Source of the DNA: Candidatus Berkelbacteria bacterium
GTDB lineage: Bacteria > Patescibacteriota > UBA1384 > JACPKC01
Assembly: GCA_016198415.1 (NCBI GenBank)
Contig: JACQIO010000016.1
Span: 6,084-70,083 of the forward strand
Direction of reading: 5' to 3'
Length of the DNA stretch: 64,000 nt
The position numbers were made by a program, and so were the translations under genes. Below are positions 2,015-52,433 of this stretch, piece after piece. How positions within the stretch are numbered: position 1 is the stretch's first letter; every line of letters starts with the position of its first letter. The notes beneath the pieces are model-generated. The model was not told the origin of the DNA and searched no databases. It saw nothing but the letters and a program-made list of their open reading frames with translations.

Positions 2015-2775
2015 TCACCACCCCACCTACACACCGGAAGTGTAGGTTGGGTGGTGTTATAATGCGGGCATGGCAGTCCGGCACGAATCGATCATTACCG
2101 GCGAGGTCTATCACGTCTTTAATCGTGGCGTTGAGAAGCGAGATCTGTTTATTGACGATGTCGATCGTCAGCACTTTCTCGATGTCCTCAGCTTCTACCT
2201 AGACGAAGTTCAGGCAACCCGCTTCTCATTTCTCACCACAAAGCAGCGACAAAGAATGCTGCAGAAAATGCCCACGCATCCGCGCGTTGAGATCTTGGCC
2301 TACTGCCTGATGGGCAACCACTTCCACCTGATCATCCGCCAGTTGGGCGACGAGGGGATTCGGCGATTTCTCCACCGGGCGCTGAACAGCTACGCTCGAT
2401 ACTTCAACACCCGATACGAGCGAGTCGGTGCGCTCTTCCAGGGTCGATTTCGTGCTGTCCGGGTGACGAGTGATGCCCAGCTTCTTCACCTGATCCGTTA
2501 CCTTCATCTCAACCCATACGTGAGCCATCTTGTGGAGACGCTCGACTCGTACACGTGGAGCTCTCACCCCCTCTATGCTGCCCAACGAGAGACACGACTC
2601 GTCCGCATCACTCAAGGCATGAGTTTCTTTGACAATGACCCAGAGCGATACCGGAAGTTCCTTGAGGATTATCAGGAGTACGCACGTTCGTTGCATCTCC
2701 TCCGGGACATCGCCGAGCAAAGCCGCTGATTTCACACCACCACCCTTTCACTCCGGAAGTGTAGGTGGTGTGGTG
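2015..2775 (+). mobile_element. IS200/IS605-family-like minimal element: Y1 (HUH) transposase gene flanked by subterminal hairpins
   Basis: Left hairpin CACCACCCCACCTACAC-ACCGGAA-GTGTAGGTTGGGTGGTG (2015-2055), right hairpin region with the same CCGGAAGTGTAGGTGGTGTGGTG core (2733-2775), both start with TTTCAC(C). Extended -10 (TGtTATAAT 2054-2062) immediately before ATG 2070 suggests a leaderless transcript. Confidence 0.55.
2070..2729 (+). CDS. IS200-like / REP-associated tyrosine transposase (Y1 HUH transposase, COG1943/RAYT-like)
   Basis: 219 aa. N-terminal YHVFNRG, HUH motif LMGNHFHLII, catalytic-Tyr region SYARYFNTRYERVGALFQGRF typical of Transposase_17/RAYT proteins. Confidence 0.85.
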   Translation: MAVRHESIITGEVYHVFNRGVEKRDLFIDDVDRQHFLDVLSFYLDEVQATRFSFLTTKQRQRMLQKMPTHPRVEILAYCLMGNHFHLIIRQLGDEGIRRFLHRALNSYARYFNTRYERVGALFQGRFRAVRVTSDAQLLHLIRYLHLNPYVSHLVETLDSYTWSSHPLYAAQRETRLVRITQGMSFFDNDPERYRKFLEDYQEYARSLHLLRDIAEQSR

Positions 2776-11619: not shown

Positions 11620-12519
11620 ATGCAAAAGATTCTTTCTCTGCTCGGAGTGGCGGGCCTCTTGATGGTAGCAGCTGGACCATCAACTGCTGCTGCCCAAGAT
11701 GCCTTTGCCGACCCGATCTTTGCTGGTTTCAACCTCAACTGGGTCAGCAATGCTCAGTTCCAGGGCCAGGGACAAGGTCAGCAAACGATTGTTCCCATTG
11801 TCAATAACAACGGGACCAACAACGCTGGGTCTGCCTCGGGTGCCGGGAACGTGACCGTTCCGGTCATCCAGGTGACGCCGGCGCCAACTGCCGGGACGCC
11901 TGTTTCAGGCGGTTCTGGCACTGGTACGTGCAATGCCAACGCCAGTTGCGCAACCGTTCCGGTCACGATGGACCCGGCCAGGCCGGCGATCATTGTGAAC
12001 GGTGGTGACGCGAATGCGGCGGCTGCGGCCTCGGCGGCCACAGCCGGCAACGGTGGTGGTGGCGAGAACGGTGACGGCGGTTCGTCCGCTGCGTCGAGCT
12101 CGTCTGCTGCCAACGCTGGTGGCAATGAGAACGGCGCCGGTGGTGCCAATGCGGCTGCGGCTGCATCGGCTGCTTCAACTGGTGGCGGTAAGGGTGGCAA
12201 CGGTGGCGGGAGCGCCGCTGCCTCAAGTGCTGCCAATGCCGGTGGCAAGGACGGGGCGAGTGCGGCGGCTGCGGCCGCGGCTGGCCCCAATGCCAACGCG
12301 GAAGCCAGGGCCGGTGACGGCAAGGCGGAAGCTAAGGCTGAGTCCAAGAGCGAACCAACCAAGGTTGCTCTGGCCAAGGGCGCGCTCCCTAAGGAGCTCC
12401 CCAAGGCTGGTGCCGAGGCTGGTGCGCTGGCCGTTGGTCTGACCACGCTGACAGGCGCTGGTTCAGCCCTCCTGGCTCGCAAGCGTAAGCTTGACCTGGC
12501 TGACCTCATCGTCGGCTAA
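11620..12519 (+). CDS. Secreted Ala/Gly/Asn-rich surface protein with N-terminal QGQGQG-TIVPIVNN module and C-terminal LPxAG-type sortase-like sorting signal
   Basis: Signal peptide MQKILSLLGVAGLLMVAAGPSTAAA. NAQFQGQGQGQQTIVPIVNNNGTNNAGSASGAGNVTVPVIQ. C-terminus LPKAG + hydrophobic stretch + RKRK tail. Confidence 0.75.
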   Translation: MQKILSLLGVAGLLMVAAGPSTAAAQDAFADPIFAGFNLNWVSNAQFQGQGQGQQTIVPIVNNNGTNNAGSASGAGNVTVPVIQVTPAPTAGTPVSGGSGTGTCNANASCATVPVTMDPARPAIIVNGGDANAAAAASAATAGNGGGGENGDGGSSAASSSSAANAGGNENGAGGANAAAAASAASTGGGKGGNGGGSAAASSAANAGGKDGASAAAAAAAGPNANAEARAGDGKAEAKAESKSEPTKVALAKGALPKELPKAGAEAGALAVGLTTLTGAGSALLARKRKLDLADLIVG

Positions 12520-12556
12520 GGACGCTCTGGTTGGCTGGTACCAGCTGACTGGAGGC

Positions 12557-12590
12557 AAAGAGACCCCGCCCGGGGTCTCTTTGTGTTGGT
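12557..12590 (+). terminator. Intrinsic terminator AAAGAGACCCCG-CC-CGGGGTCTCTTT + GTGTTGG
   Basis: Perfect palindromic GC stem flanked by A and T tracts after stop of 11620..12519. Could act bidirectionally. Confidence 0.55.
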
Positions 12591-12745
12591 ATCACCTTAG
12601 TCCTCCCCTTGCCAACCCCTCCTCCTGACACGCTCATTTCAACACGTCACTTCCTCAAAGACACTCTTCGTTCCTGACGGCCGAAGTTTCTTTGGGAGCG
12701 TGATGCGTCGAAATGGGGATGGTATCCGCCTTTGGCGGATGGATT

Positions 12746-12800
12746 GGTATCTGTGTGATCTGCGAGTCGCCAGGGAGGCGACCTATGTATCTGTGGTGTG
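12746..12800 (-). repeat. Box-hairpin-box intergenic repeat, copy A (minus orientation)
   Basis: RC reads CTCACACCACAGATACATAGG - GTCGCC..GGCGAC hairpin - CAGATCACACAGATACC. Homologous to copies at 19516-19575 and 43484-43543. Confidence 0.5.
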
Positions 12801-12812
12801 AGCTACCCCTGC

Positions 12813-12841
12813 TTGACAGAGCACCGAGAACGCGGTACCCT
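12813..12841 (+). promoter_or_regulatory. Promoter candidate CTTGACAGAG-N17-TACCCT (weak -10)
   Basis: Shares the CTTGACAG -35 context with promoters at 2792 and 13597. Points into the ORF-poor region. Confidence 0.25.
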
Positions 12842-13064
12842 CCGTCCAGCTGAACGCAGCTTTACCTTTGTGAGAGCAACCCACCGGACCTGATGTTGTC
12901 GGCACGGCCGGTAACCAGTGAAGGGGACGTCAGGTCCCGGTGGGTTCACACGAATTGACGGCTGGCTGTCGCTGGGCTCGGGCCGTGAGGCCGTAGGCCC
13001 CGGGGCTTACACCGAGCACGCCGTGGTCTCAGGAGCCACGGATGGCGCCGAGCTAGCCGTCTCA

Positions 13065-13106
13065 ACAACTGGATCCCGCCGGATTAACCCCCCCGACCGG
13101 CGGGAT
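13065..13106. repeat. Perfect 14-bp inverted repeat hairpin CTGGATCCCGCCGG-attaacccccccga-CCGGCGGGATCCAG
   Basis: Seen directly. Lies inside the ORF-poor region 12830-13500. Confidence 0.5.
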
Positions 13107-13511
13107 CCAGCACCAGAGCCCTGCCCTGGTCCACCTTCCCCCAACCAGGGTGGGGTTCCCAGAGCGCCGGACCCGTGCCGGGTCTGGGCGTTGGTGCGAC
13201 CTCTCGCCCGAGCGAGAGGTATCCGGTGAGGAGAACAGAGGTGGGACGGACTCCGTGGCAGAGTTCCTCCGCTCCCAAAGAGCGTGGGCCAACCACCACG
13301 GTGACACCTCGGCACGGCGGAGCCGCGCAGTGCCAGTTGGGGGATTCACATCGCTGACGAACGCCGAGCCCTGGCTCCGGATCGCGTCGGCCTTGCCCCT
13401 AGCCGTCCAGTTTTTCTTGAGCCTGAACGTCCCACCCCTCCCGGGACGTTCACCGCTCGACCCCCTGAAGAGTCCGCCCACGTGCGGACTCTTCCTCTGT
13501 CATGCGGGCAA

Positions 13512-13586
13512 GGGTGAACGTGAATGGTGAAAGGAGAAGGCAGCGTGACGCTTTGCGCTGTACCTTTCACTTTTCACGTTTCACCC
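13512..13586. repeat. GTGAAAG/C heptad-repeat hairpin element, copy 1
   Basis: Forward arm GGGTGAACGTGAATGGTGAAAGGAGAAGG, 20-nt palindromic spacer, reverse arm TACCTTTCACTTTTCACGTTTCACCC. Confidence 0.6.
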
Positions 13587-13596
13587 AAGGTACCCC

Positions 13597-13626
13597 TTGA
13601 CAGGTGGTCGGCATCTGCAGTATCTT
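13597..13626 (+). promoter_or_regulatory. sigma70 promoter TTGACA-N18-TATCTT (homologous to the promoter at 2792)
   Basis: CTTGACAGGTG...ATCTGCAGTATCTT aligns with CTTGACAGATG...ATCCTGGTGTATCAT at 2791-2820. Confidence 0.4.
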
Positions 13627-13632
13627 GCCCCA

Positions 13633-14184
13633 GCAACCTAACAAGTTGACAGAAATCCCTGGGCGAGTGTCTGGTGGGCTGAGGCTCGCCAACATGACGC
13701 AGCGAGGCACCTCGCCTGCGCCCGTTCGAACCTGCTGCAGAAGAATGGAGAGGCGAGTAGACGTTTATCAGCCTCGCTCAGGGATTCACATAACAAGTTC
13801 ATCTGGCTAGCCCCAGGGCCCTGTGGGCATCGGAGACGTCCCTGACCTCGGTCAGGACCGGTGCGCGCATCCTCCTTGAGAAGCGGAGGGGTGAAAGGCT
13901 CGGCTTCCAACAAAGCCCGTCGTGTGATCTCCGGTTCAGCCGCTTCGGCTTGGTGATCACCTTCGGACTTGGCCGATCTTGCCAGATGAACCCTCTTGAA
14001 CGTTCGGTTGGTGGGCGAGGAGTCGTACGCGACCTCTCCCACCGGCCCAACGCCAGCGGCCGGGCCGCGAGCTCCTACCTGGTCCACCTTCCCTAACCAG
14101 CGGAGTCGCGCGGTGCGGCTGCCTCAACGCAGACGGACGACGAGGGCCCCTGTGCCCCCAGAGCATCTCGCGTCCATCTGCCCC
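13633..14184 (+). ncRNA. Candidate non-coding transcript between a promoter and a strong terminator (no credible ORF)
   Basis: About 580 nt. Contains GGAGGGGTGAAAGGCTCGGCTTCCA and GAATCCCGGCC, which loosely resemble RNase P CR-I/CR-V, but the match is too weak to call. Confidence 0.2.
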
Positions 14185-14220
14185 GAATCCCGGCCCTCAA
14201 AGCCGGGATTCACCTTTTCC
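14185..14220 (+). terminator. Intrinsic terminator GAATCCCGGC-cctcaaa-GCCGGGATTC + ACCTTTTCC
   Basis: Perfect 10-bp stem then T-tract, followed by a half-arm of the TTTCAC repeat (CGTTTCACCC). Confidence 0.6.
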
Positions 14221-14243
14221 GTTTCACCCGCTACAGTACGCTT

Positions 14244-15248
14244 ATGTCCACCCTTGATGATCGGAAATCGAAACTCTACGAGCTCCTCAAGCTTGAGGAG
14301 AAAGACGCCCGGATTCGTGCAATCGAGGCGCTGATGGCCGCGCCCAATTTCTGGGCCGATCAAACCCAGGCCACGCAGCTCAGCACTGAACTGGCCCGGC
14401 TCAAACAGACTATTGCCGAGTGGGAAATAGCCGAGACCGATGATCAGGTTCGGGCGCTGGAACTGAAGTCGCTCCTCTCTGGTAAGTACGACGCCAGCAA
14501 CGCCATCGTCAGCTTCCACGCCGGCGCCGGGGGGACCGAGGCCATGGACTGGGCCGGAATGCTCCGGCGGATGATTGAGCGTTGGGCCGAAGGTCGGGGT
14601 TTGCCGGTGACGGAAATCGAGCAGTCGCTCGGTGAGGAGGCCGGCCTCAAGTCCGCCACCCTCAAGATTGCCGGCGAGCACGCCTACGGCTATCTCAAAG
14701 GGGAGGCCGGCGTTCACCGCCTGGTCCGGATCTCGCCGTTCGACGCCGATAAAGCCCGCCATACTTCTTTTGCGCTCATTGAGGTGGTGCCCGAGCTCGC
14801 AGATCTGGGCGATGTGGTGATCGACGAGAAAGACCTCCGGACCGATCTCTTCCGCTCCGGCGGCAAGGGTGGTCAGAACGTCAACAAAGTGGAAACGGCC
14901 GTTCGGATCACGCACCTCCCCACCGGCCTGGTTGCCACCAGCCAGAACGAGCGGTCTCAGGCTCAGAATCGAGCGCTCGCAATGGGCGTCCTGGTTGCCA
15001 AGCTCCAGGCCTTGGCGCACGAGCAGCGGCTCGAGCAGATTGGCGAGCTCAAGGGCGAGCACCGGAAGGTGGAGTGGGGGAGTCAGATTCGCTCCTACGT
15101 CCTCCAGCCCTACCAACTGGTCAAGGATCTCAGGACCGGGCATGAGGAGAGTGATGCCGAGGCTGTCCTTGAGGGCAGGAAGCTGCAGGGGTTTATGGAT
15201 GCCTACCTTGCGTGGCAGGCCACACAAGGGGTGAAACGTGAAAGGTAA
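14244..15248 (+). CDS. prfB: Peptide chain release factor 2
   Basis: SPF motif (RISPFDADKARHTSF) and GGQ motif (GGKGGQNVNKVETAVRITH). Single uninterrupted ORF with no CTT-TGA-C frameshift site. Last 6 codons plus stop lie inside the GTGAAAG repeat. Confidence 0.9.
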   Translation: MSTLDDRKSKLYELLKLEEKDARIRAIEALMAAPNFWADQTQATQLSTELARLKQTIAEWEIAETDDQVRALELKSLLSGKYDASNAIVSFHAGAGGTEAMDWAGMLRRMIERWAEGRGLPVTEIEQSLGEEAGLKSATLKIAGEHAYGYLKGEAGVHRLVRISPFDADKARHTSFALIEVVPELADLGDVVIDEKDLRTDLFRSGGKGGQNVNKVETAVRITHLPTGLVATSQNERSQAQNRALAMGVLVAKLQALAHEQRLEQIGELKGEHRKVEWGSQIRSYVLQPYQLVKDLRTGHEESDAEAVLEGRKLQGFMDAYLAWQATQGVKRER

Positions 15249-15303
15249 AAGGTGAAAGGTGCACGGAGACAGCCCGTTTCACGATTCACCTTTCACGTTT
15301 CAC
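15228..15303. repeat. GTGAAAG/C heptad-repeat hairpin element, copy 2 (overlaps prfB 3' end)
   Basis: GGGGTGAAACGTGAAAGGTAAAAGGTGAAAGGTG - cacggagacagcccg - TTTCACGATTCACCTTTCACGTTTCAC. Confidence 0.6.
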
Positions 15304-15674: not shown

Positions 15675-15677
15675 GTT

Positions 15678-16104
15678 GGTGAAAGGTGAAACGTGAAAGG
15701 TGAAACGACCACGATCAACCTCTCCCGGCCTCATTACCGTCTCGATGCTTGGAAGGAATCACTCAAGCTGGCCAAACTGATCTACGAGCTCAGTCAACGC
15801 TTCCCCGACTCTGAACGGTATGGGTTAGTCAGTCAGATGCGTCGGGCGGCAGTCTCGGTATTGAGTAACATCGCGGAGGGCGCAGCGCGGAATAGCAGAA
15901 AGGAATTTGCCCAGTTTCTCTCAATTGCTCAGGGGTCACTCAGTGAGCTTGAAGCCCAGGTGATCATTTCACAGGAGCTTGGCTATATTGCAGATTCAGC
16001 AGAGGTGCTTGAGCTCCTCGATCGGGTATCTCGTCTTGTCGGTGGATTGCAGAGGAGTTTGCGATGACCCTGGACCTTTCACGTTTCACATTTCACCTTT
16101 CACC
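15678..16104 (+). mobile_element. GTGAAAG-repeat stem whose loop carries a four-helix-bundle protein gene (rRNA-IVS-like cargo element)
   Basis: Forward arm GGTGAAAGGTGAAACGTGAAAGGTGAAACG (15678-15707) and reverse arm CCTTTCACGTTTCACATTTCACCTTTCACC (16075-16104) flank the ORF. Same arms as the cargo-less hairpin copies. Confidence 0.5.
15693..16067 (+). CDS. Four-helix-bundle protein (23S rRNA intervening-sequence protein family, TIGR02436-like)
   Basis: LAKLIYELSQRFPDSERYGLVSQMRRAAVSVLSNIAEGAARNSRKEFAQFLSIAQGSLSELEAQ matches the family consensus. GTG start lies inside the repeat arm. Confidence 0.8.
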   Translation: MKGETTTINLSRPHYRLDAWKESLKLAKLIYELSQRFPDSERYGLVSQMRRAAVSVLSNIAEGAARNSRKEFAQFLSIAQGSLSELEAQVIISQELGYIADSAEVLELLDRVSRLVGGLQRSLR

Positions 16105-16107
16105 ACT

Positions 16108-17710: not shown

Positions 17711-18334
17711 ATGATCAAACGAAGGACCCACCCCGGGTTATTCATCGCCTTTGAAGGCTTGGACGGATCCGGTTCAGACATTCACGCAGCGGCCCTGGCT
17801 CGGCTCCTCAGCCGTGACGGGTACAGGGTTGTCCTTCGCCATGAGCCCACCAACAGCATGATCGGTGGGCTCATTCGTGCCCGTCTGGCGGGGGAGTGGG
17901 AGATTGCGCCGGAAACGCTCCAACTCCTCTTCACGGCCGATCGAGCTGAGCACCTCCGGAGCATGATTCTCCCTGGCCTTGAGGCTGGCAAGATCGTCAT
18001 CTGCGATCGCTACGTCCTCTCGGCGCTGGCCTACAACGTGGTCTTAGTCAACGACCGCGAGTGGCTCCGTGCCCTCAACAAGCGCTTCTTGAAGCCGGAT
18101 GTGACGTTCCTCATTCAGGTTGATCCCAAGATCTGCGCGCGTCGGCTGAAAGAGATGCACCTGGAGCTCGAGCTCCATCGGGAAGAGTCCAAGCTAAAAC
18201 ACGTCTGGCGCGAGTACCAGGCCCTGGCGGCGGAGTTTGATGGCGTCCACGTCATCGACGGCGAACGGGACGATGTGGCGATCATTGACGAGATTGCCGA
18301 GCGTGCCAAGGAGGCCCTGAACGAGCGGGCGTGA
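17711..18334 (+). CDS. tmk: Thymidylate kinase family protein with non-canonical P-loop (GLDGSGSD instead of GxxGxGK[ST])
   Basis: IAFEGLDGSGSDI aligns with the IVIEGLEGAGKTT P-loop. DRYVLSALAY matches the Tmk DR(Y/H) motif. P-loop Lys is absent. Confidence 0.7.
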   Translation: MIKRRTHPGLFIAFEGLDGSGSDIHAAALARLLSRDGYRVVLRHEPTNSMIGGLIRARLAGEWEIAPETLQLLFTADRAEHLRSMILPGLEAGKIVICDRYVLSALAYNVVLVNDREWLRALNKRFLKPDVTFLIQVDPKICARRLKEMHLELELHREESKLKHVWREYQALAAEFDGVHVIDGERDDVAIIDEIAERAKEALNERA

Positions 18335-18347
18335 GTTGCCGTACCCC

Positions 18348-18376
18348 TTGACGGTGGGGAGCTCGCAGGGTACCAT
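18348..18376 (+). promoter_or_regulatory. sigma70 promoter TTGACG-N17-TACCAT upstream of rplJ-rplL (about 150-nt leader, probable L10 leader)
   Basis: TTGACG 18348-18353, TACCAT 18371-18376. Confidence 0.45.
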
Positions 18377-19080: not shown

Positions 19081-19506
19081 ATGGCCGATGAAGCCAAGAC
19101 AGAAGCAACCAAGCCAGAGGCGAACCCAAAATTCACCAAACTCATCGAGGAGATCAAGGGACTCTCGGTGATGGAACTCTCTGAGCTCGTCAAAGCGCTC
19201 GAGGATGTGCTAGGCGTGAGCGCGGCGGCTCCAGTCGCGATGGTCGCGGCCGGTGGTGCCGCTGGTGGTGCCGCGGCTGCGGAGGAGGAGAAGTCCAGTT
19301 TCACCCTCGACCTGACCGACGCTGGCGCGCAGAAGATCGCCGTTATTAAGGCGGTCCGGGAGATTCGCCCCGATCTGGGTCTGAAAGAGGCCAAGGACCT
19401 GGTGGACGGCGCACCCAAAGAAGTCAAGAAAGACCTGCCCAAGGATGAGGCGGAAGCCGCCAAAGGGAAGCTTGAGGCCGCCGGGGCCAAGGTTGAGTTG
19501 AAGTAA
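19081..19506 (+). CDS. rplL: 50S ribosomal protein L7/L12
   Basis: Ala-rich hinge, C-terminal [57 protein letters not shown]. Confidence 0.9.
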
Positions 19507-19515
19507 CTCGCTCGG

Positions 19516-19575
19516 CTTACACCACAGATACACAGGTCGCCTCGCGGCGACAGGCAGATCTCACAGATATCACGA
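19516..19575 (+). repeat. Box-hairpin-box intergenic repeat, copy B (immediately upstream of the tRNA operon)
   Basis: CTTACACCACAGATACACAGG - GTCGCCTCGCGGCGAC - AGGCAGATCTCACAGATATCACG. Confidence 0.5.
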
Positions 19576-19641
19576 ATCGAGCCTTGAGGGCTCTACGTGC
19601 GATCAGATCTGACGAATACGATGGCGTATTGGTCAGATCGA

Positions 19642-19717
19642 CGGCGCGTAGCGCAGCCAGGGAGCGCACTACGTTGGGACGTGGAGGACGTGGGTTCAAA
19701 TCCCATCGCGCCGGCCA
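19642..19717 (+). tRNA. tRNA-Pro (anticodon GGG), CCA encoded. Hand-fold gives a 6-nt anticodon loop
   Basis: Acceptor CGGCGCG/CGCGCCG, D-arm GCGC-AGCCAGGGA-GCGC, anticodon arm CTACG-TTGGGA-CGTGG, T-arm GTGGG-TTCAAAT-CCCAT, discriminator G, CCA. Confidence 0.75.
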
Positions 19718-19759
19718 GTTCGGACTATGAGGGTAGCCTCGTCGTTCGATACTCAATAG

Positions 19760-19837
19760 TTGGGCCAGTAGCTCAGTGGTGAGAGCGGCGGGGCTTTCAA
19801 CCCCAGCAGGTCGTGGGTTCAAATCCCATCTGGTCCA
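19760..19837 (+). tRNA. tRNA-Glu (anticodon TTC), no encoded CCA
   Basis: Acceptor GGGCCAG/CTGGTCC, D-arm GCTC-AGTGGTGA-GAGC, anticodon loop CTTTCAA between G-rich and C-rich stems, T-arm GTGGG-TTCAAAT-CCCAT. Variable region appears longer than usual. Confidence 0.6.
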
Positions 19838-19843
19838 CACACC

Positions 19844-19920
19844 GCAGACGTAGCTCAACTGCGCAGAGCACCCCCGTGGTACGGGGGAAGATGCGGGTTC
19901 AAATCCCGTCGTCAGCTCCA
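19844..19920 (+). tRNA. tRNA-Thr (anticodon GGT), CCA encoded
   Basis: Acceptor GCAGACG/CGTCAGC (one A-A mismatch), anticodon arm CCCCC-GTGGTAC-GGGGG, T-arm GCGGG-TTCAAAT-CCCGT. D-loop lacks canonical GG. Confidence 0.7.
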
Positions 19921-19937
19921 GGGCCTACCCTGGCCCA

Positions 19938-19970
19938 GGGCCCCCTCGGTAAGGAGGGGGCCCTTCCCTT
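19938..19970 (+). terminator. Intrinsic terminator GGGCCCCCTC-GGTAAG-GAGGGGGCCC + TTCCCTT after the tRNA cluster
   Basis: Perfect 10-bp GC stem and T-rich tail. Confidence 0.55.
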
Positions 19971-43022: not shown

Positions 43023-43463
43023 TTAGGTCTGCTCGTACCGGCCCATCAGCTCGGCGTGGTTGACGATGTGACCTTCCATCGCTGCTTCGAGGTCGGCCTT
43101 CGCCGTGGAAGGCGGCAGCTCGAGGAGGGTATCGAGCGCGAACACCTTGAAGTAGTAGCGATGCTCGCGGTCGGGTGGACAGGGACCGTGGTAGCCGGTG
43201 GTCTTTGCACTCGTGGTGCCCTCAACCCCACCCCGCGGGACTGTCCCGGCCGGGATCTCGGTCAGTGTTGGGTCGAGATTCCAGACCAGCCAGTGGACCC
43301 AGAGGCCGACCGGCGCATCTGGATCGTCGACGATGAGCGCCAGGCTCTTGGTCCCGTCCGGCACGTCGGCAATCGCAAGCGGCGGACTGACATCGCCACC
43401 TTGGCAGGTGTATCGAGTCGGAATTGCACCACTCTGCTCAAAGGCAGGCGAAGTTAGCTTCAC
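43023..43463 (-). CDS. YbhB/YbcL-family (PEBP) protein; start set at GTG matching the family N-terminus (ORF track extends to 43511 through the repeat)
   Basis: VKLTSPAFEQSGAIPTRYTCQGGDVSPPLAIADVPDGTKSLALIVDDPDAP aligns with YbhB MKLISNDL...DPDAP. Confidence 0.8.
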   Translation of the reverse strand: MKLTSPAFEQSGAIPTRYTCQGGDVSPPLAIADVPDGTKSLALIVDDPDAPVGLWVHWLVWNLDPTLTEIPAGTVPRGGVEGTTSAKTTGYHGPCPPDREHRYYFKVFALDTLLELPPSTAKADLEAAMEGHIVNHAELMGRYEQT

Positions 43464-43483
43464 GGCTCCAGCTCCGATCCCAG

Positions 43484-43543
43484 CATCTGTGTGATCTGTG
43501 TGCCCCGACAAATCTGCCGGGGCCTGTGCATCTGTGGTGTGAG
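43484..43543 (-). repeat. Box-hairpin-box intergenic repeat, copy C (upstream of PEBP gene)
   Basis: RC reads CTCACACCACAGATGCACAGG - CCCCGGCAGATTTGTCGGGG - CACACAGATCACACAGATGCTG. Confidence 0.5.
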
Positions 43544-43544
43544 A

Positions 43545-44105
43545 CTAATCTTTGGCTGCGTCAATCACCTCTTGGGCGCCGTCCACGGACGAGACGAGGA
43601 CGTCCTTGACCGCATCCACCGCCGTCCCGCCCACCTCGCCGGCGCCCTTCAAGGCACCGGTCACGGCGGACTTGGTGACCGCTCCCACATCGCCACCCAC
43701 CTCGCGCGTGGCGTCAATTAAACTCATGACGACGGCTTTGGCGGCCTCGGCGGTGTCTTCTCCAGTCTCCCCGGCTTCACTGACGGCCGTACTGGCCACT
43801 TCCCCAGCGGCCGTGGTCAGGTCGCCGCCTACCTGAGAGACGCCCTCAATGACGCCGCGGGCGACGCCGCGAATCCCATCGAGCGTGCTCGCACCAGCCT
43901 CAGCTGCACCCTCAATCGCCCCTCGGGTGACGTCGCTGACGACTGCCACGAGTTTCTCGGCCACATCGCCGGTCCCGCCTAGAGCGGTCTTGGTGGTATC
44001 GGCCACCGTCTGGGCGGCCGTGCCAGCCACGTCCCCGGCTGTCCCCAAGACGCCCATCAAGGCATCGTGTGCCTGTTTACCCAACTCTCCTAGTGGATGA
44101 GCCAT
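43545..44105 (-). CDS. Ala/Gly/Thr/Val-rich repetitive hypothetical protein
   Basis: Strong SD GAGGAGGAA 4 nt before ATG. Periodic GxVAxTAxxxVxDxxxxA repeats. 186 aa. Confidence 0.6.
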   Translation of the reverse strand: MAHPLGELGKQAHDALMGVLGTAGDVAGTAAQTVADTTKTALGGTGDVAEKLVAVVSDVTRGAIEGAAEAGASTLDGIRGVARGVIEGVSQVGGDLTTAAGEVASTAVSEAGETGEDTAEAAKAVVMSLIDATREVGGDVGAVTKSAVTGALKGAGEVGGTAVDAVKDVLVSSVDGAQEVIDAAKD

Positions 44106-49143: not shown

Positions 49144-49200
49144 GGTGAAAGGTGAAACGTGAATCGTGAAAGGACAGACCTTTCGCGTTTCACCTGTCTG
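49144..49200. repeat. GTGAAAG/C heptad-repeat hairpin element, copy 4 (between trxA and nrdJ)
   Basis: GGTGAAAGGTGAAACGTGAATCGTGAAAGG - acagac - CTTTCGCGTTTCACC. Confidence 0.6.
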
Positions 49201-51900: not shown

Positions 51901-51963
51901 ATGAATGGTGAAAGGTGAATGGTGAAAGGTGAAACGCCCAAACCTTACGTGTCACGCTTCACC
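51901..51963. repeat. GTGAAAG/C heptad-repeat hairpin element, copy 5 (between nrdR and nrdJ; supplies nrdR stop and nrdJ RBS region)
   Basis: ATGAATGGTGAAAGGTGAATGGTGAAAGGTGAAACG - cccaaacc - TTACGTGTCACGCTTCACC. Confidence 0.6.
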
Positions 51964-52433
51964 TCGATCCTTTCCCCCTCTTTCTGTTGGTCAGCGAGGA
52001 TCTTACCGAGTTCCGTTTCAAAGGCCTCCAGGTCCTCAAAGGATCGGTAGACCGAGGCAAAGCGCAGGTAGGCAATCGGGTCGAGCTGCTTCAAGTGGCC
52101 CAGGACTTGTTGACCGATCTGCTCCGAGCTGACCTCGTCTTTGCAGGTGGCGTAGAGATCGCGTTCGATGGCATCCACCAGCTGCTCGGCGTGCTCGGCC
52201 ACGGCTGACCGCTTCTCCCCAGCCTGGTGAATGCCCGCCAAGAGCTTCTCCTTAGAGAAGGGCTCGCGCCGGCCGTCCCGTTTGACCACCATGAGATTCA
52301 GGACTTCAATCCGCTCAAACGTGGTGAAGCGGAACTGGCAGGCCATGCACTCGCGCCGACGGCGAATCGCTTGCTCGTCTTCGCGCGAGTCAATCACTCG
52401 AGTCTCGCCCTTATTGCAGTGCGGACAAACCAT
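51945..52433 (-). CDS. nrdR: Transcriptional repressor NrdR
   Basis: Zn ribbon MVCPHC...CMAC plus ATP-cone. About 15-aa C-terminal extension ending VKRDT encoded by the repeat. Confidence 0.9.
   Translation of the reverse strand: MVCPHCNKGETRVIDSREDEQAIRRRRECMACQFRFTTFERIEVLNLMVVKRDGRREPFSKEKLLAGIHQAGEKRSAVAEHAEQLVDAIERDLYATCKDEVSSEQIGQQVLGHLKQLDPIAYLRFASVYRSFEDLEAFETELGKILADQQKEGERIEVKRDT

Follow-up and report, generated by a model that had tools for sequence, protein, structure and literature searches.

A box-hairpin-box repeat of about 55-60 nt occurs in three sharply bounded copies in a 64-kb stretch of a metagenome-assembled genome (MAG) of Candidatus Berkelbacteria, a member of the Candidate Phyla Radiation (CPR; Patescibacteria). 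This stretch is referred to as the window, and all copy counts refer to its 64 kb. We tentatively favor the reading, to which we give slightly less than an even chance, that the element is a young, species-specific short interspersed intergenic repeat that acts, if at all, as an RNA hairpin between cistrons or at a 3' end. On this reading it is one of several short-lived intergenic hairpin repeats of this Berkelbacteria lineage, with an unusual layout, and a variant within the known kind of short interspersed intergenic hairpin repeats, an assignment based on three copies only. In each copy, a left box (CTYACACCACAGATRCAYAGG) is followed by a GC hairpin of 6-9 bp and a right box (CAGATCWCACAGATR). 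The copies are as follows.

Copy A, 12748-12802, minus strand: left box CTCACACCACAGATACATAGG at 12802 to 12782, right box CAGATCACACAGATA at 12762 to 12748
Copy A hairpin, 12783 to 12765, minus strand: GGTCGCC-TCCCT-GGCGACT, 7 bp stem
Copy B, 19516-19569, plus strand: left box CTTACACCACAGATACACAGG at 19516-19536, right box CAGATCTCACAGATA at 19555-19569
Copy B hairpin, 19536-19551, plus strand: GTCGCC-TCGC-GGCGAC, 6 bp stem
Copy C, 43484-43543, minus strand: left box CTCACACCACAGATGCACAGG at 43543 to 43523, right box CAGATCACACAGATG at 43498 to 43484
Copy C hairpin, 43523 to 43502, minus strand: GCCCCGGCA-GATT-TGTCGGGGC, 9 bp stem

The sequence-only reading of this DNA had described three such copies, and all of them were confirmed: the boxes were found, and the hairpins fold on the sense strand with stems of 7, 6 and 9 bp. 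The limits proposed for copy C (43484-43543) were correct, whereas copy A had to be moved from 12746-12800 to 12748-12802 and copy B ends at 19569 instead of 19575. The 18-nt left box ACACCACAGATRCAYAGG gave three matches at up to 3 mismatches, all of them exact, against 0.09 expected (0 of 100 shuffles reached three), and the right box CAGATCNCACAGAT matched exactly at 12749, 19555 and 43485. The bare heptamer CACAGAT was not enriched (8 matches against 7.25 expected), and seven of the eight lie within the three elements. A covariance model of the three copies scored 81.1 bits for A, 80.1 for B and 75.5 for C. With filters off, its next best match in the window reached 9.7 bits (E=0.6), which indicates that there are exactly three copies in the 64 kb. 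All three are extragenic. The flanks (85 nt downstream and 80 nt upstream) were unrelated between copies by local alignment against shuffles (p=0.1-0.8). Since their similarity did not exceed the shuffled level, the unit is sharply bounded at about 55-60 nt. A longer composite unit of the type box-hairpin-box-hairpin-box was considered for copies A and B and was rejected, as the flanks showed no significant similarity. The second hairpins that follow these two copies are non-conserved and have no significant sequence similarity to each other.

Second hairpin after copy B, 19579-19593, plus strand: GAGCC-TTGAG-GGCTC, 9 nt past B
Second hairpin after copy A, 12724-12740, minus strand: ATCCGCC-AAA-GGCGGAT, 7 nt past A

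The consensus of the copies reads CTYACAC-CACAGATR-CAYAGG, hairpin, 3-4 nt, CAGATCW-CACAGATR. Both boxes are made of CACAGAT-like units with a 9-nt period and stand in direct, not inverted, orientation. The four units of a copy are spaced 9, 21-27 and 9 nt, and the spacing of the box pair is 21, 22 or 27 nt among the copies. The boxes are about 92% identical between copies (33/36 for A against C). They are C/A-only stretches between which no pairing is possible, and the predicted folds leave them single-stranded. The 9-mers at the two ends co-vary within a copy, with CACAGATAC present twice in A and CACAGATGC twice in C, and the right side of copy C holds a perfect tandem 9-mer, CACACAGAT, in two units. 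The hairpin of copy C could not be aligned to that of A and B, from which it differs in stem, length and loop, yet it still pairs. At the RNA level the stems are GGUCGCC/GGCGACU in A, GUCGCC/GGCGAC in B and GCCCCGGCA/UGUCGGGGC in C. In the five shared stem columns 15 of 15 cells pair, and two of the five pairs are changed on both sides, as expected of compensatory change. This level of covariation was reached by 50 of 500 shuffles, so that from three sequences it is suggestive and not significant. The G·U pairs (a G-U in the stem of C and the outer G-U in A) are valid on the sense strand only. Fold z-scores for A, B and C were -2.1, -1.2 and -2.4 on the sense strand and +0.7, -0.6 and -0.7 on the antisense strand, so only the sense folds exceed shuffled sequence in stability.

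The genes around copies B and C are as follows.

rplL (L7/L12), 19081-19506, plus strand: Pfam PF00542 and PF16320, directly upstream of copy B
Three tRNA genes downstream of copy B, 19642-19920, plus strand: unassigned (reads as Pro-GGG), Glu-TTC and Thr-GGT
186-aa open reading frame (ORF), 43545-44105, minus strand: Ala/Gly/Val-rich, no family match, gene call in Logan contig L010
PEBP/YbhB gene, 43023-43463, minus strand: GTG start, Shine-Dalgarno GGAG 8 nt upstream

Copy B begins 10 nt past the rplL stop codon (19504-19506) on the same strand and ends 72 nt before the tRNA at 19642. It had been placed 67 nt upstream of this tRNA in the same orientation; the orientation was right, and the distance is 66 nt from the end assumed then (19575) or 72 nt from the refined end. 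The rplL product is 100% identical to MBI4022868.1 of Candidatus Berkelbacteria, which is encoded on a 122,686-bp NCBI contig. The tRNA cluster is closed by a strong hairpin at 19937-19963. No sigma-70-like site was found between rplL and the tRNAs. Because no promoter is detectable there, the tRNAs are probably read through copy B, and the transcript would start at the rplJ promoter TTGACG-17-TACCAT at 18348.

The first tRNA of the cluster (19642-19717, plus strand) is itself unusual. It scores 52 bits in Rfam, while ARAGORN gives no assignment and reports the anticodon 'gg'. Folding by hand gave an anticodon stem CUACG/CGUGG with a 6-nt loop, UUGGGA. This would point to a tRNA-Pro(GGG) whose anticodon loop is shortened, or to a sequence error.

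Copy C begins 1 nt past the TAG stop (43547 to 43545) of the 186-aa ORF, on the same strand, and ends 20 nt before the GTG start of the PEBP gene (43463). It thereby fills most of the 81-nt intercistronic gap. The remaining 20 nt hold the Shine-Dalgarno sequence, which leaves no room for a promoter downstream of the copy. A mechanical ORF, 43023-43511, extends into copy C. The NCBI YbhB/YbcL protein MBI4022890.1 has 146 aa and equals the translation from the GTG start at 43463; the longer ORF through the repeat is therefore an artefact, as the earlier reading had recognized by trimming it.

Copy A lies in a different setting. It is found in a gap of about 230 nt between a terminator (12556-12583) on one side and a promoter-like site (12813-12841, plus strand) on the other. 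The terminator is intrinsic and bidirectional, has a UCUUUGUGUU tail and closes an LPXTG-like surface-protein gene at 11620-12519. Copy A had been described as standing before an ORF-free stretch, which is correct only in part. Ahead of it on its own strand there are only about 190 nt of non-coding DNA before the terminator, and the large ORF-free stretch, 12803-14243, is behind it. Copies B and C are co-oriented with both of their neighboring genes. The orientation that had been related to the downstream genes fits the upstream genes equally well, with B and C starting 10 and 1 nt past stop codons.

The distribution of the element was examined in four relatives (L005, L007, L008 and L009) that have 82-88% L7/L12 identity and the gene order ybaB-pth-rplA-tmk-rplJ-rplL-tRNA-tgt. 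No boxes and no covariance-model matches were found in any of the four. Directly after rplL, L007 and L008 carry a classical terminator (AAAACCCCGG..CCGGGGTTTTG; CCCCGG...CCGGGGTTTTG) followed by a TTGACAGGT-N14-TAnnnT promoter. In L005 the promoter stands there alone, without terminator or palindrome, and in L009 it is accompanied by a different palindrome, built of GTAGC units. At this place the window lacks both the terminator and the promoter of the relatives, and copy B and the weak second hairpin are found instead. From its position, that second hairpin (19579-19593) may be a relic of the rplL terminator that the relatives carry. In L009 the tRNA after rplL (1217-1365) appears to be interrupted between the D-arm and the anticodon region by about 75 inserted nt, possibly an intron. 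A candidate orthologue at the copy A site in L005 (CTCACACAC..GATCACAAGATCT), a resemblance seen by eye, was dropped after the covariance model found no match there.

The gapped motif CACCACAGATNCANAGG-N8-38-CACAGAT was used for exact-pattern scans of collections. It had three matches in 185,579 GTDB representative genomes, all in AT-rich gut or rumen MAGs and close to the chance expectation, one match in the JGI metagenomes, inside a coding sequence, and none in IMG/VR. BLAST of the element gave no match in phages and one marginal partial match in plasmids. Logan contigs of the same population (SRR12113383/4) contain copy B (L012) and copy C (L010 and L011), all 100% identical. Nothing relevant was found in the literature on the motif or on REP elements in CPR. 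These results indicate that the element is restricted to this lineage.

Several features of known signals are absent from the copies. Alignments of the copies showed no terminal inverted repeats, the boxes being direct, and no target-site duplication was found, as the flanks differ within each copy (GGGGTAG/CCAATCC, GCTCGG/TCACGAA and GATTAGT/CTGGGAT). There is no U-tract after the hairpin of any copy; CACA, CAGG or CTCG plus CAGATC is found there instead, and a terminator scan made no intrinsic terminator call on the element. At none of the copies, nor after them, did the scan or inspection reveal sigma-70 -35/-10 hexamers separated by 16-19 nt. In Rfam 15, only the three tRNAs of the window passed gathering thresholds; around copy A nothing was better than E=0.09, with nothing on the element itself. 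By inspection there is no GTTRRRY core of an integron attC site, and the boxes are direct. No integrase was found in Pfam scans covering most, not all, of the larger ORFs of the window. DnaA-box, LexA-box and sigma-54 readings were poor matches on inspection. A cluster of GATC near copy B is not special, since GATC is over-represented genome-wide (543 observed against 224 expected).

We compared the element with repeats and RNA signals of known kinds. Like the repetitive extragenic palindromic (REP) elements and BIMEs of Enterobacteria and Pseudomonas, it is short, extragenic and hairpin-forming, and these repeats often lie after stop codons or between cistrons. Their RNA stem-loop stabilizes the upstream mRNA, and a Y1 transposase like the REP-associated tyrosine transposases (RAYT) is also encoded in this window. 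REP copies, however, keep the sequence of the hairpin, a palindrome of 20-40 nt, whereas the present element keeps its direct-repeat flanks and varies in the hairpin. REPs also flank their own RAYT gene, while the local RAYT-like gene (2070-2729) is flanked by CACC/GGTG hairpins. Of the GTAG-type 5' tetranucleotide of REPs, GTAG is present before copy A only, with TTAGT at C and TCGG at B. A genome typically has tens to hundreds of extragenic REP copies; the 64 kb examined here contain three copies of the element. The BOX elements of Streptococcus pneumoniae resemble the element in being modular, intergenic and non-coding, with terminal boxes around a variable middle. BOX elements are transcribed with neighboring genes, as would be the case here if our reading is correct. 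They differ in their length (100-300 nt), in the pairing of boxA with boxC, where the boxes of the present element are direct and cannot pair, and in sequence, for which no similarity is known.

Small, non-coding, multi-copy, lineage-restricted and intergenic repeats also include miniature inverted-repeat transposable elements (MITEs) such as Correia, RUP and Nezha. MITEs have terminal inverted repeats and target-site duplications, and the element is without both. The proposal of a small MITE-like repeat agrees with a unit that is bounded, species-specific and missing at the orthologous site of four relatives, but in the strict sense the element is not MITE-like, given its direct boxes and the missing target-site duplication. 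STRR-type tandem heptamers of cyanobacteria and the heptamer arrays of this genome (GGTGAAA, GAGGACA and ATCAATC in the window) share with it a 7-nt core and a short period. In the other heptamer families of this genome inverted arrays form the stem, whereas the CACAGAT arrays are direct and flank a separate GC hairpin. The layout of single-stranded boxes beside a hairpin that is kept in structure over sequence is similar to lambda nut/tR1 (boxA, rutA-boxB-rutB) and to boxB-boxA-boxC of rrn antitermination. One copy (B) is likewise upstream of stable-RNA genes, but two of the three copies are not beside such genes, and the element has no similarity to the boxA consensus (of the GCUCUUUAACAA type) and no Rfam match. 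An intrinsic terminator consists of a GC hairpin plus a U-tract, which the element does not have; true examples are found at 12556-12583 and in the relatives. In its mode of action the element comes closest to REP or BOX-type intergenic repeats, yet it differs from REPs, MITEs, intrinsic terminators and sigma-70 promoters in what defines them and matches no Rfam family. The repeat half of the earlier reading is closer to this evidence than its promoter half.

If the element is such a repeat, it would have spread to intergenic spacers through some process of mobility or duplication. Copy B occupies the site of the relatives' rplL terminator, with the terminator-promoter module replaced. At least two of the three copies would be transcribed in sense orientation within operons, namely rplJ-rplL-[B]-tRNAs and the 186-aa gene-[C]-PEBP. 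A stem-loop right after the upstream stop codon would then protect the 3' end of the upstream mRNA or partly attenuate read-through, for which the REP elements of enterobacterial operons are an analogue. Several observations weigh against this reading. Three copies are too few for genome-wide statistics of orientation or position, and copy A has no recognizable same-strand gene upstream. No empty site that would point to mobility was found in the same-population contigs L010, L011 and L012; for copy C, the nearest PEBP homologues are at most 65% identical and too distant for an empty-site comparison. The hairpin is not a classical terminator, because it has no U-tract. Moreover, the boxes are far better conserved than the hairpin, a pattern that neutral decay of a selfish repeat would not give. 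This hints at a sequence-specific constraint on the boxes, and it fits a sequence-specific ligand better than passive decay.

Such a ligand is part of an alternative that we consider unlikely, although it comes next in our estimate, in which the element is a cis-regulatory RNA module. Four CACAGAU-like units, held single-stranded around a hairpin that matters for its structure only, would serve a multimeric RNA-binding protein, an RNase or an antisense RNA as a platform, and the module would control processing, stability or translation of the flanking cistrons. Near-identical boxes beside a hairpin that is free in sequence and keeps its pairing are what selection on box sequence and hairpin shape would leave. 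The co-varying terminal 9-mers (CACAGATAC in A and CACAGATGC in C), the C/A-only boxes that remain unpaired in the predicted folds and the placement of B and C exactly at cistron junctions are also in line with it. However, the 9-mer co-variation concerns a single position in three copies, the window contains no complementary RNA gene rich in ATCTGTG, none of the relatives conserves the module, and the flanking genes have no common theme (a ribosomal protein and tRNAs; PEBP and DsbA; a non-coding region). A narrower form, somewhat less probable still, is a CPR-specific RNA operator at which the four CACAGAU units would dock a sequence-specific RNA-binding protein or ribonuclease that cuts or protects polycistronic transcripts at cistron junctions. 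It would, for example, separate the rplJL mRNA from a tRNA cluster that lost its own promoter. Of a probability close to that of the operator, and again low, is a REP-type element that a Y1 (HUH) transposase, for example the 2070-2729 protein, mobilizes as single-stranded DNA, with the hairpin as recognition structure and the flanking CACAGAT repeats as cleavage or target sites. A RAYT-like Y1 transposase is encoded 10 kb away in the window. Both it and a homologue in another genome (L014) are flanked by hairpins or palindromes, as in the RAYT/REP architecture. Identical direct motifs on both sides of a single hairpin, without terminal inverted repeats or target-site duplication, are compatible with Y1-type cut-and-paste, and the 5' foot of the hairpin downstream of the transposase has TCACACCAC in common with the left box. 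This last link is not significant: when up to 1 mismatch is allowed, 21 matches are found and 16.7 expected. The hairpins beside the transposase belong to another family, CACC/GGTG, and the NCBIfam score of the transposase, 45.9, is below the cut-off of 80. Y1 enzymes recognize a conserved hairpin, but that of copy C is unlike those of A and B in sequence, length and loop.

The least supported readings are a rut-like Rho site and a promoter or operator, and we regard both as very improbable. As a Rho-dependent terminator the element would recall rutA-boxB-rutB of phage lambda tR1. Its boxes are rich in C and A and poor in G (about 8 C to 3 G in the left box and about 5 C to 2 G in the right one), copies B and C stand immediately after stop codons, where Rho can load, and the missing U-tract makes intrinsic termination unlikely. 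Nevertheless, the boxes are CA repeats with few YC dimers, the units that the Rho primary binding site recognizes, and for a rut site about 35 nt of unstructured sequence in all is little. Rut sites are not expected to be nearly identical in nucleotide sequence, and termination at B would silence tRNAs that have no promoter of their own. The sequence-only reading had favored a promoter or regulatory module, which would here be a promoter or transcription-factor operator for the downstream genes. Every copy does point at something downstream on the strand that carries it (the tRNAs, PEBP and a 70-nt block that L005 also has in conserved form), and the tRNA cluster has no other recognizable promoter. 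This part of the claim is nevertheless not supported, as there are no sigma-70 hexamers in the element or the spacers and the relatives' promoter is missing in the window. The best manual candidate, GCGACA-15-TATCAC, has a 15-nt spacer and occurs in copy B only. Canonical promoters are found elsewhere in the window, namely TTGACA-17-TATCAT at 2792-2820, TTGACA-17-TACCCT at 12813-12841, TTGACA-18-TATCTT at 13597 and the TTGACG-17-TACCAT of rplJ. Copy C ends 20 nt before a start codon, and box pairs spaced 21, 22 and 27 nt would not be in phase with one another on the double helix. That the G·U pairs are valid on one strand only speaks for a hairpin at the RNA level, and the relatives use an ordinary promoter at the place where they lack the element.

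The 70-nt block toward which copy A points is a CU-rich non-coding block of about 70 nt at 12601-12670, 77% identical to L005 4081-4153 (blastn E=1.5e-5). It lies just downstream of the terminator of the LPXTG-like surface-protein gene, and the surrounding intergenic DNA could not be aligned to L005. The block may represent a small RNA, or else a 3' element, on the minus strand. The ORF-free stretch on the other side of copy A, 12803-14243, is 1.4 kb long, lies upstream of prfB, has an unusual degree of structure and holds many perfect palindromes of 10-20 bp. Fold z-scores on the plus and minus strands were -8.2 and -4.2 for 12740-13520 and -6.2 and -3.2 for 13590-14243, and promoter-like sites are found in the stretch at 12813 and 13597. 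It gave no Rfam match at E<=10 and no Pfam match in any ORF, and it is not present in L005. Either a large non-coding RNA or clustered palindromic repeats could account for it.

Several other families of hairpin repeats are found in the window, at the ends of genes. Inverted arrays of the heptamers GGTGAAA/CGTGAAA form long hairpins at 13517-13586, 15230-15303, 49144-49200 and 51902-51969. The second of these stands directly after the prfB stop codon (-41 kcal/mol, z -6.7), the third after an nrd gene and the fourth between nrdR and nrd. Together with the GTAGC-unit analogue of L009, they appear to be lineage-typical terminator-like elements. Two further arrays, 15677-15717 and 16065-16105, have 41-nt arms that are 85% complementary and bracket a gene (15693-16067, plus strand) for a four-helix-bundle '23S rRNA intervening-sequence protein' (PF05635, E=6e-36). 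This unit, 15677-16105, forms an insertion that separates ybaB from pth; the two genes abut in each of the three relatives whose contigs cover the junction (L005, L007 and L008). Within cysS (404-2008), inverted heptamer arrays at 1145-1211 on the plus strand (GAGGACA x4 / CGTCCTC-CGTCATC x4, -35 kcal/mol, z -4.1) are in frame in the catalytic domain and encode about 22 low-complexity residues between the conserved DFALWK and SPWG. This insert is reminiscent of the Rickettsia palindromic elements in coding regions. L005 has a three-copy perfect palindrome of its own, CCCTGCCTGCCGGCAGGCAGGTCTCCCC, which is intergenic (557-584, 17978-18005 and 18319-18346). Because there are several families in 64 kb and L005 has its own palindrome, private hairpin repeats are a habit of the lineage with rapid turnover, each Berkelbacteria genome having its own.

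The transposase mentioned above is the following.

Y1/HUH transposase, 2070-2729, plus strand: 219 aa, PF01797 (E=7e-7), HUH-type HFHL and YLHLNP motifs

In NCBIfam it comes closest to 'REP-associated tyrosine transposase', with 45.9 bits. On either side of the gene, at 2016-2056 and 2735-2775, stands one of two direct copies of the 41-nt hairpin CACCACC..ACAC-CCGGAA-GTGTAGG..GGTGGTG. Gene and hairpins together (2016-2775) make up a unit of about 760 bp that is IS200- or RAYT-like and directly follows cysS. Transposases of this family are widespread in Patescibacteria, and the L014 homologue, 52% identical and from another Patescibacteria genome, is flanked by its own short palindromes, TTCCACTTTCCAAGTGGAA.

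If the element reflects only a turnover of intergenic hairpins, it is mainly a caveat for annotation, as seen in the PEBP ORF, whose N-terminus it caused to be over-extended. The repeat has also replaced the terminator-plus-promoter module that stands between rplL and the tRNAs in relatives. Even with little DNA to spare, this small CPR genome maintains several species-specific families of hairpin repeats, which co-occur with a Y1 transposase of RAYT-like type and with a palindrome inserted in frame into cysS. To our knowledge, almost nothing is known experimentally about post-transcriptional operon processing in Patescibacteria, and the boxes would be an entry point to it if they are under sequence-specific selection. 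Should the RNA operator prove true, minimal-genome bacteria would have in this element a new type of signal for processing between cistrons.

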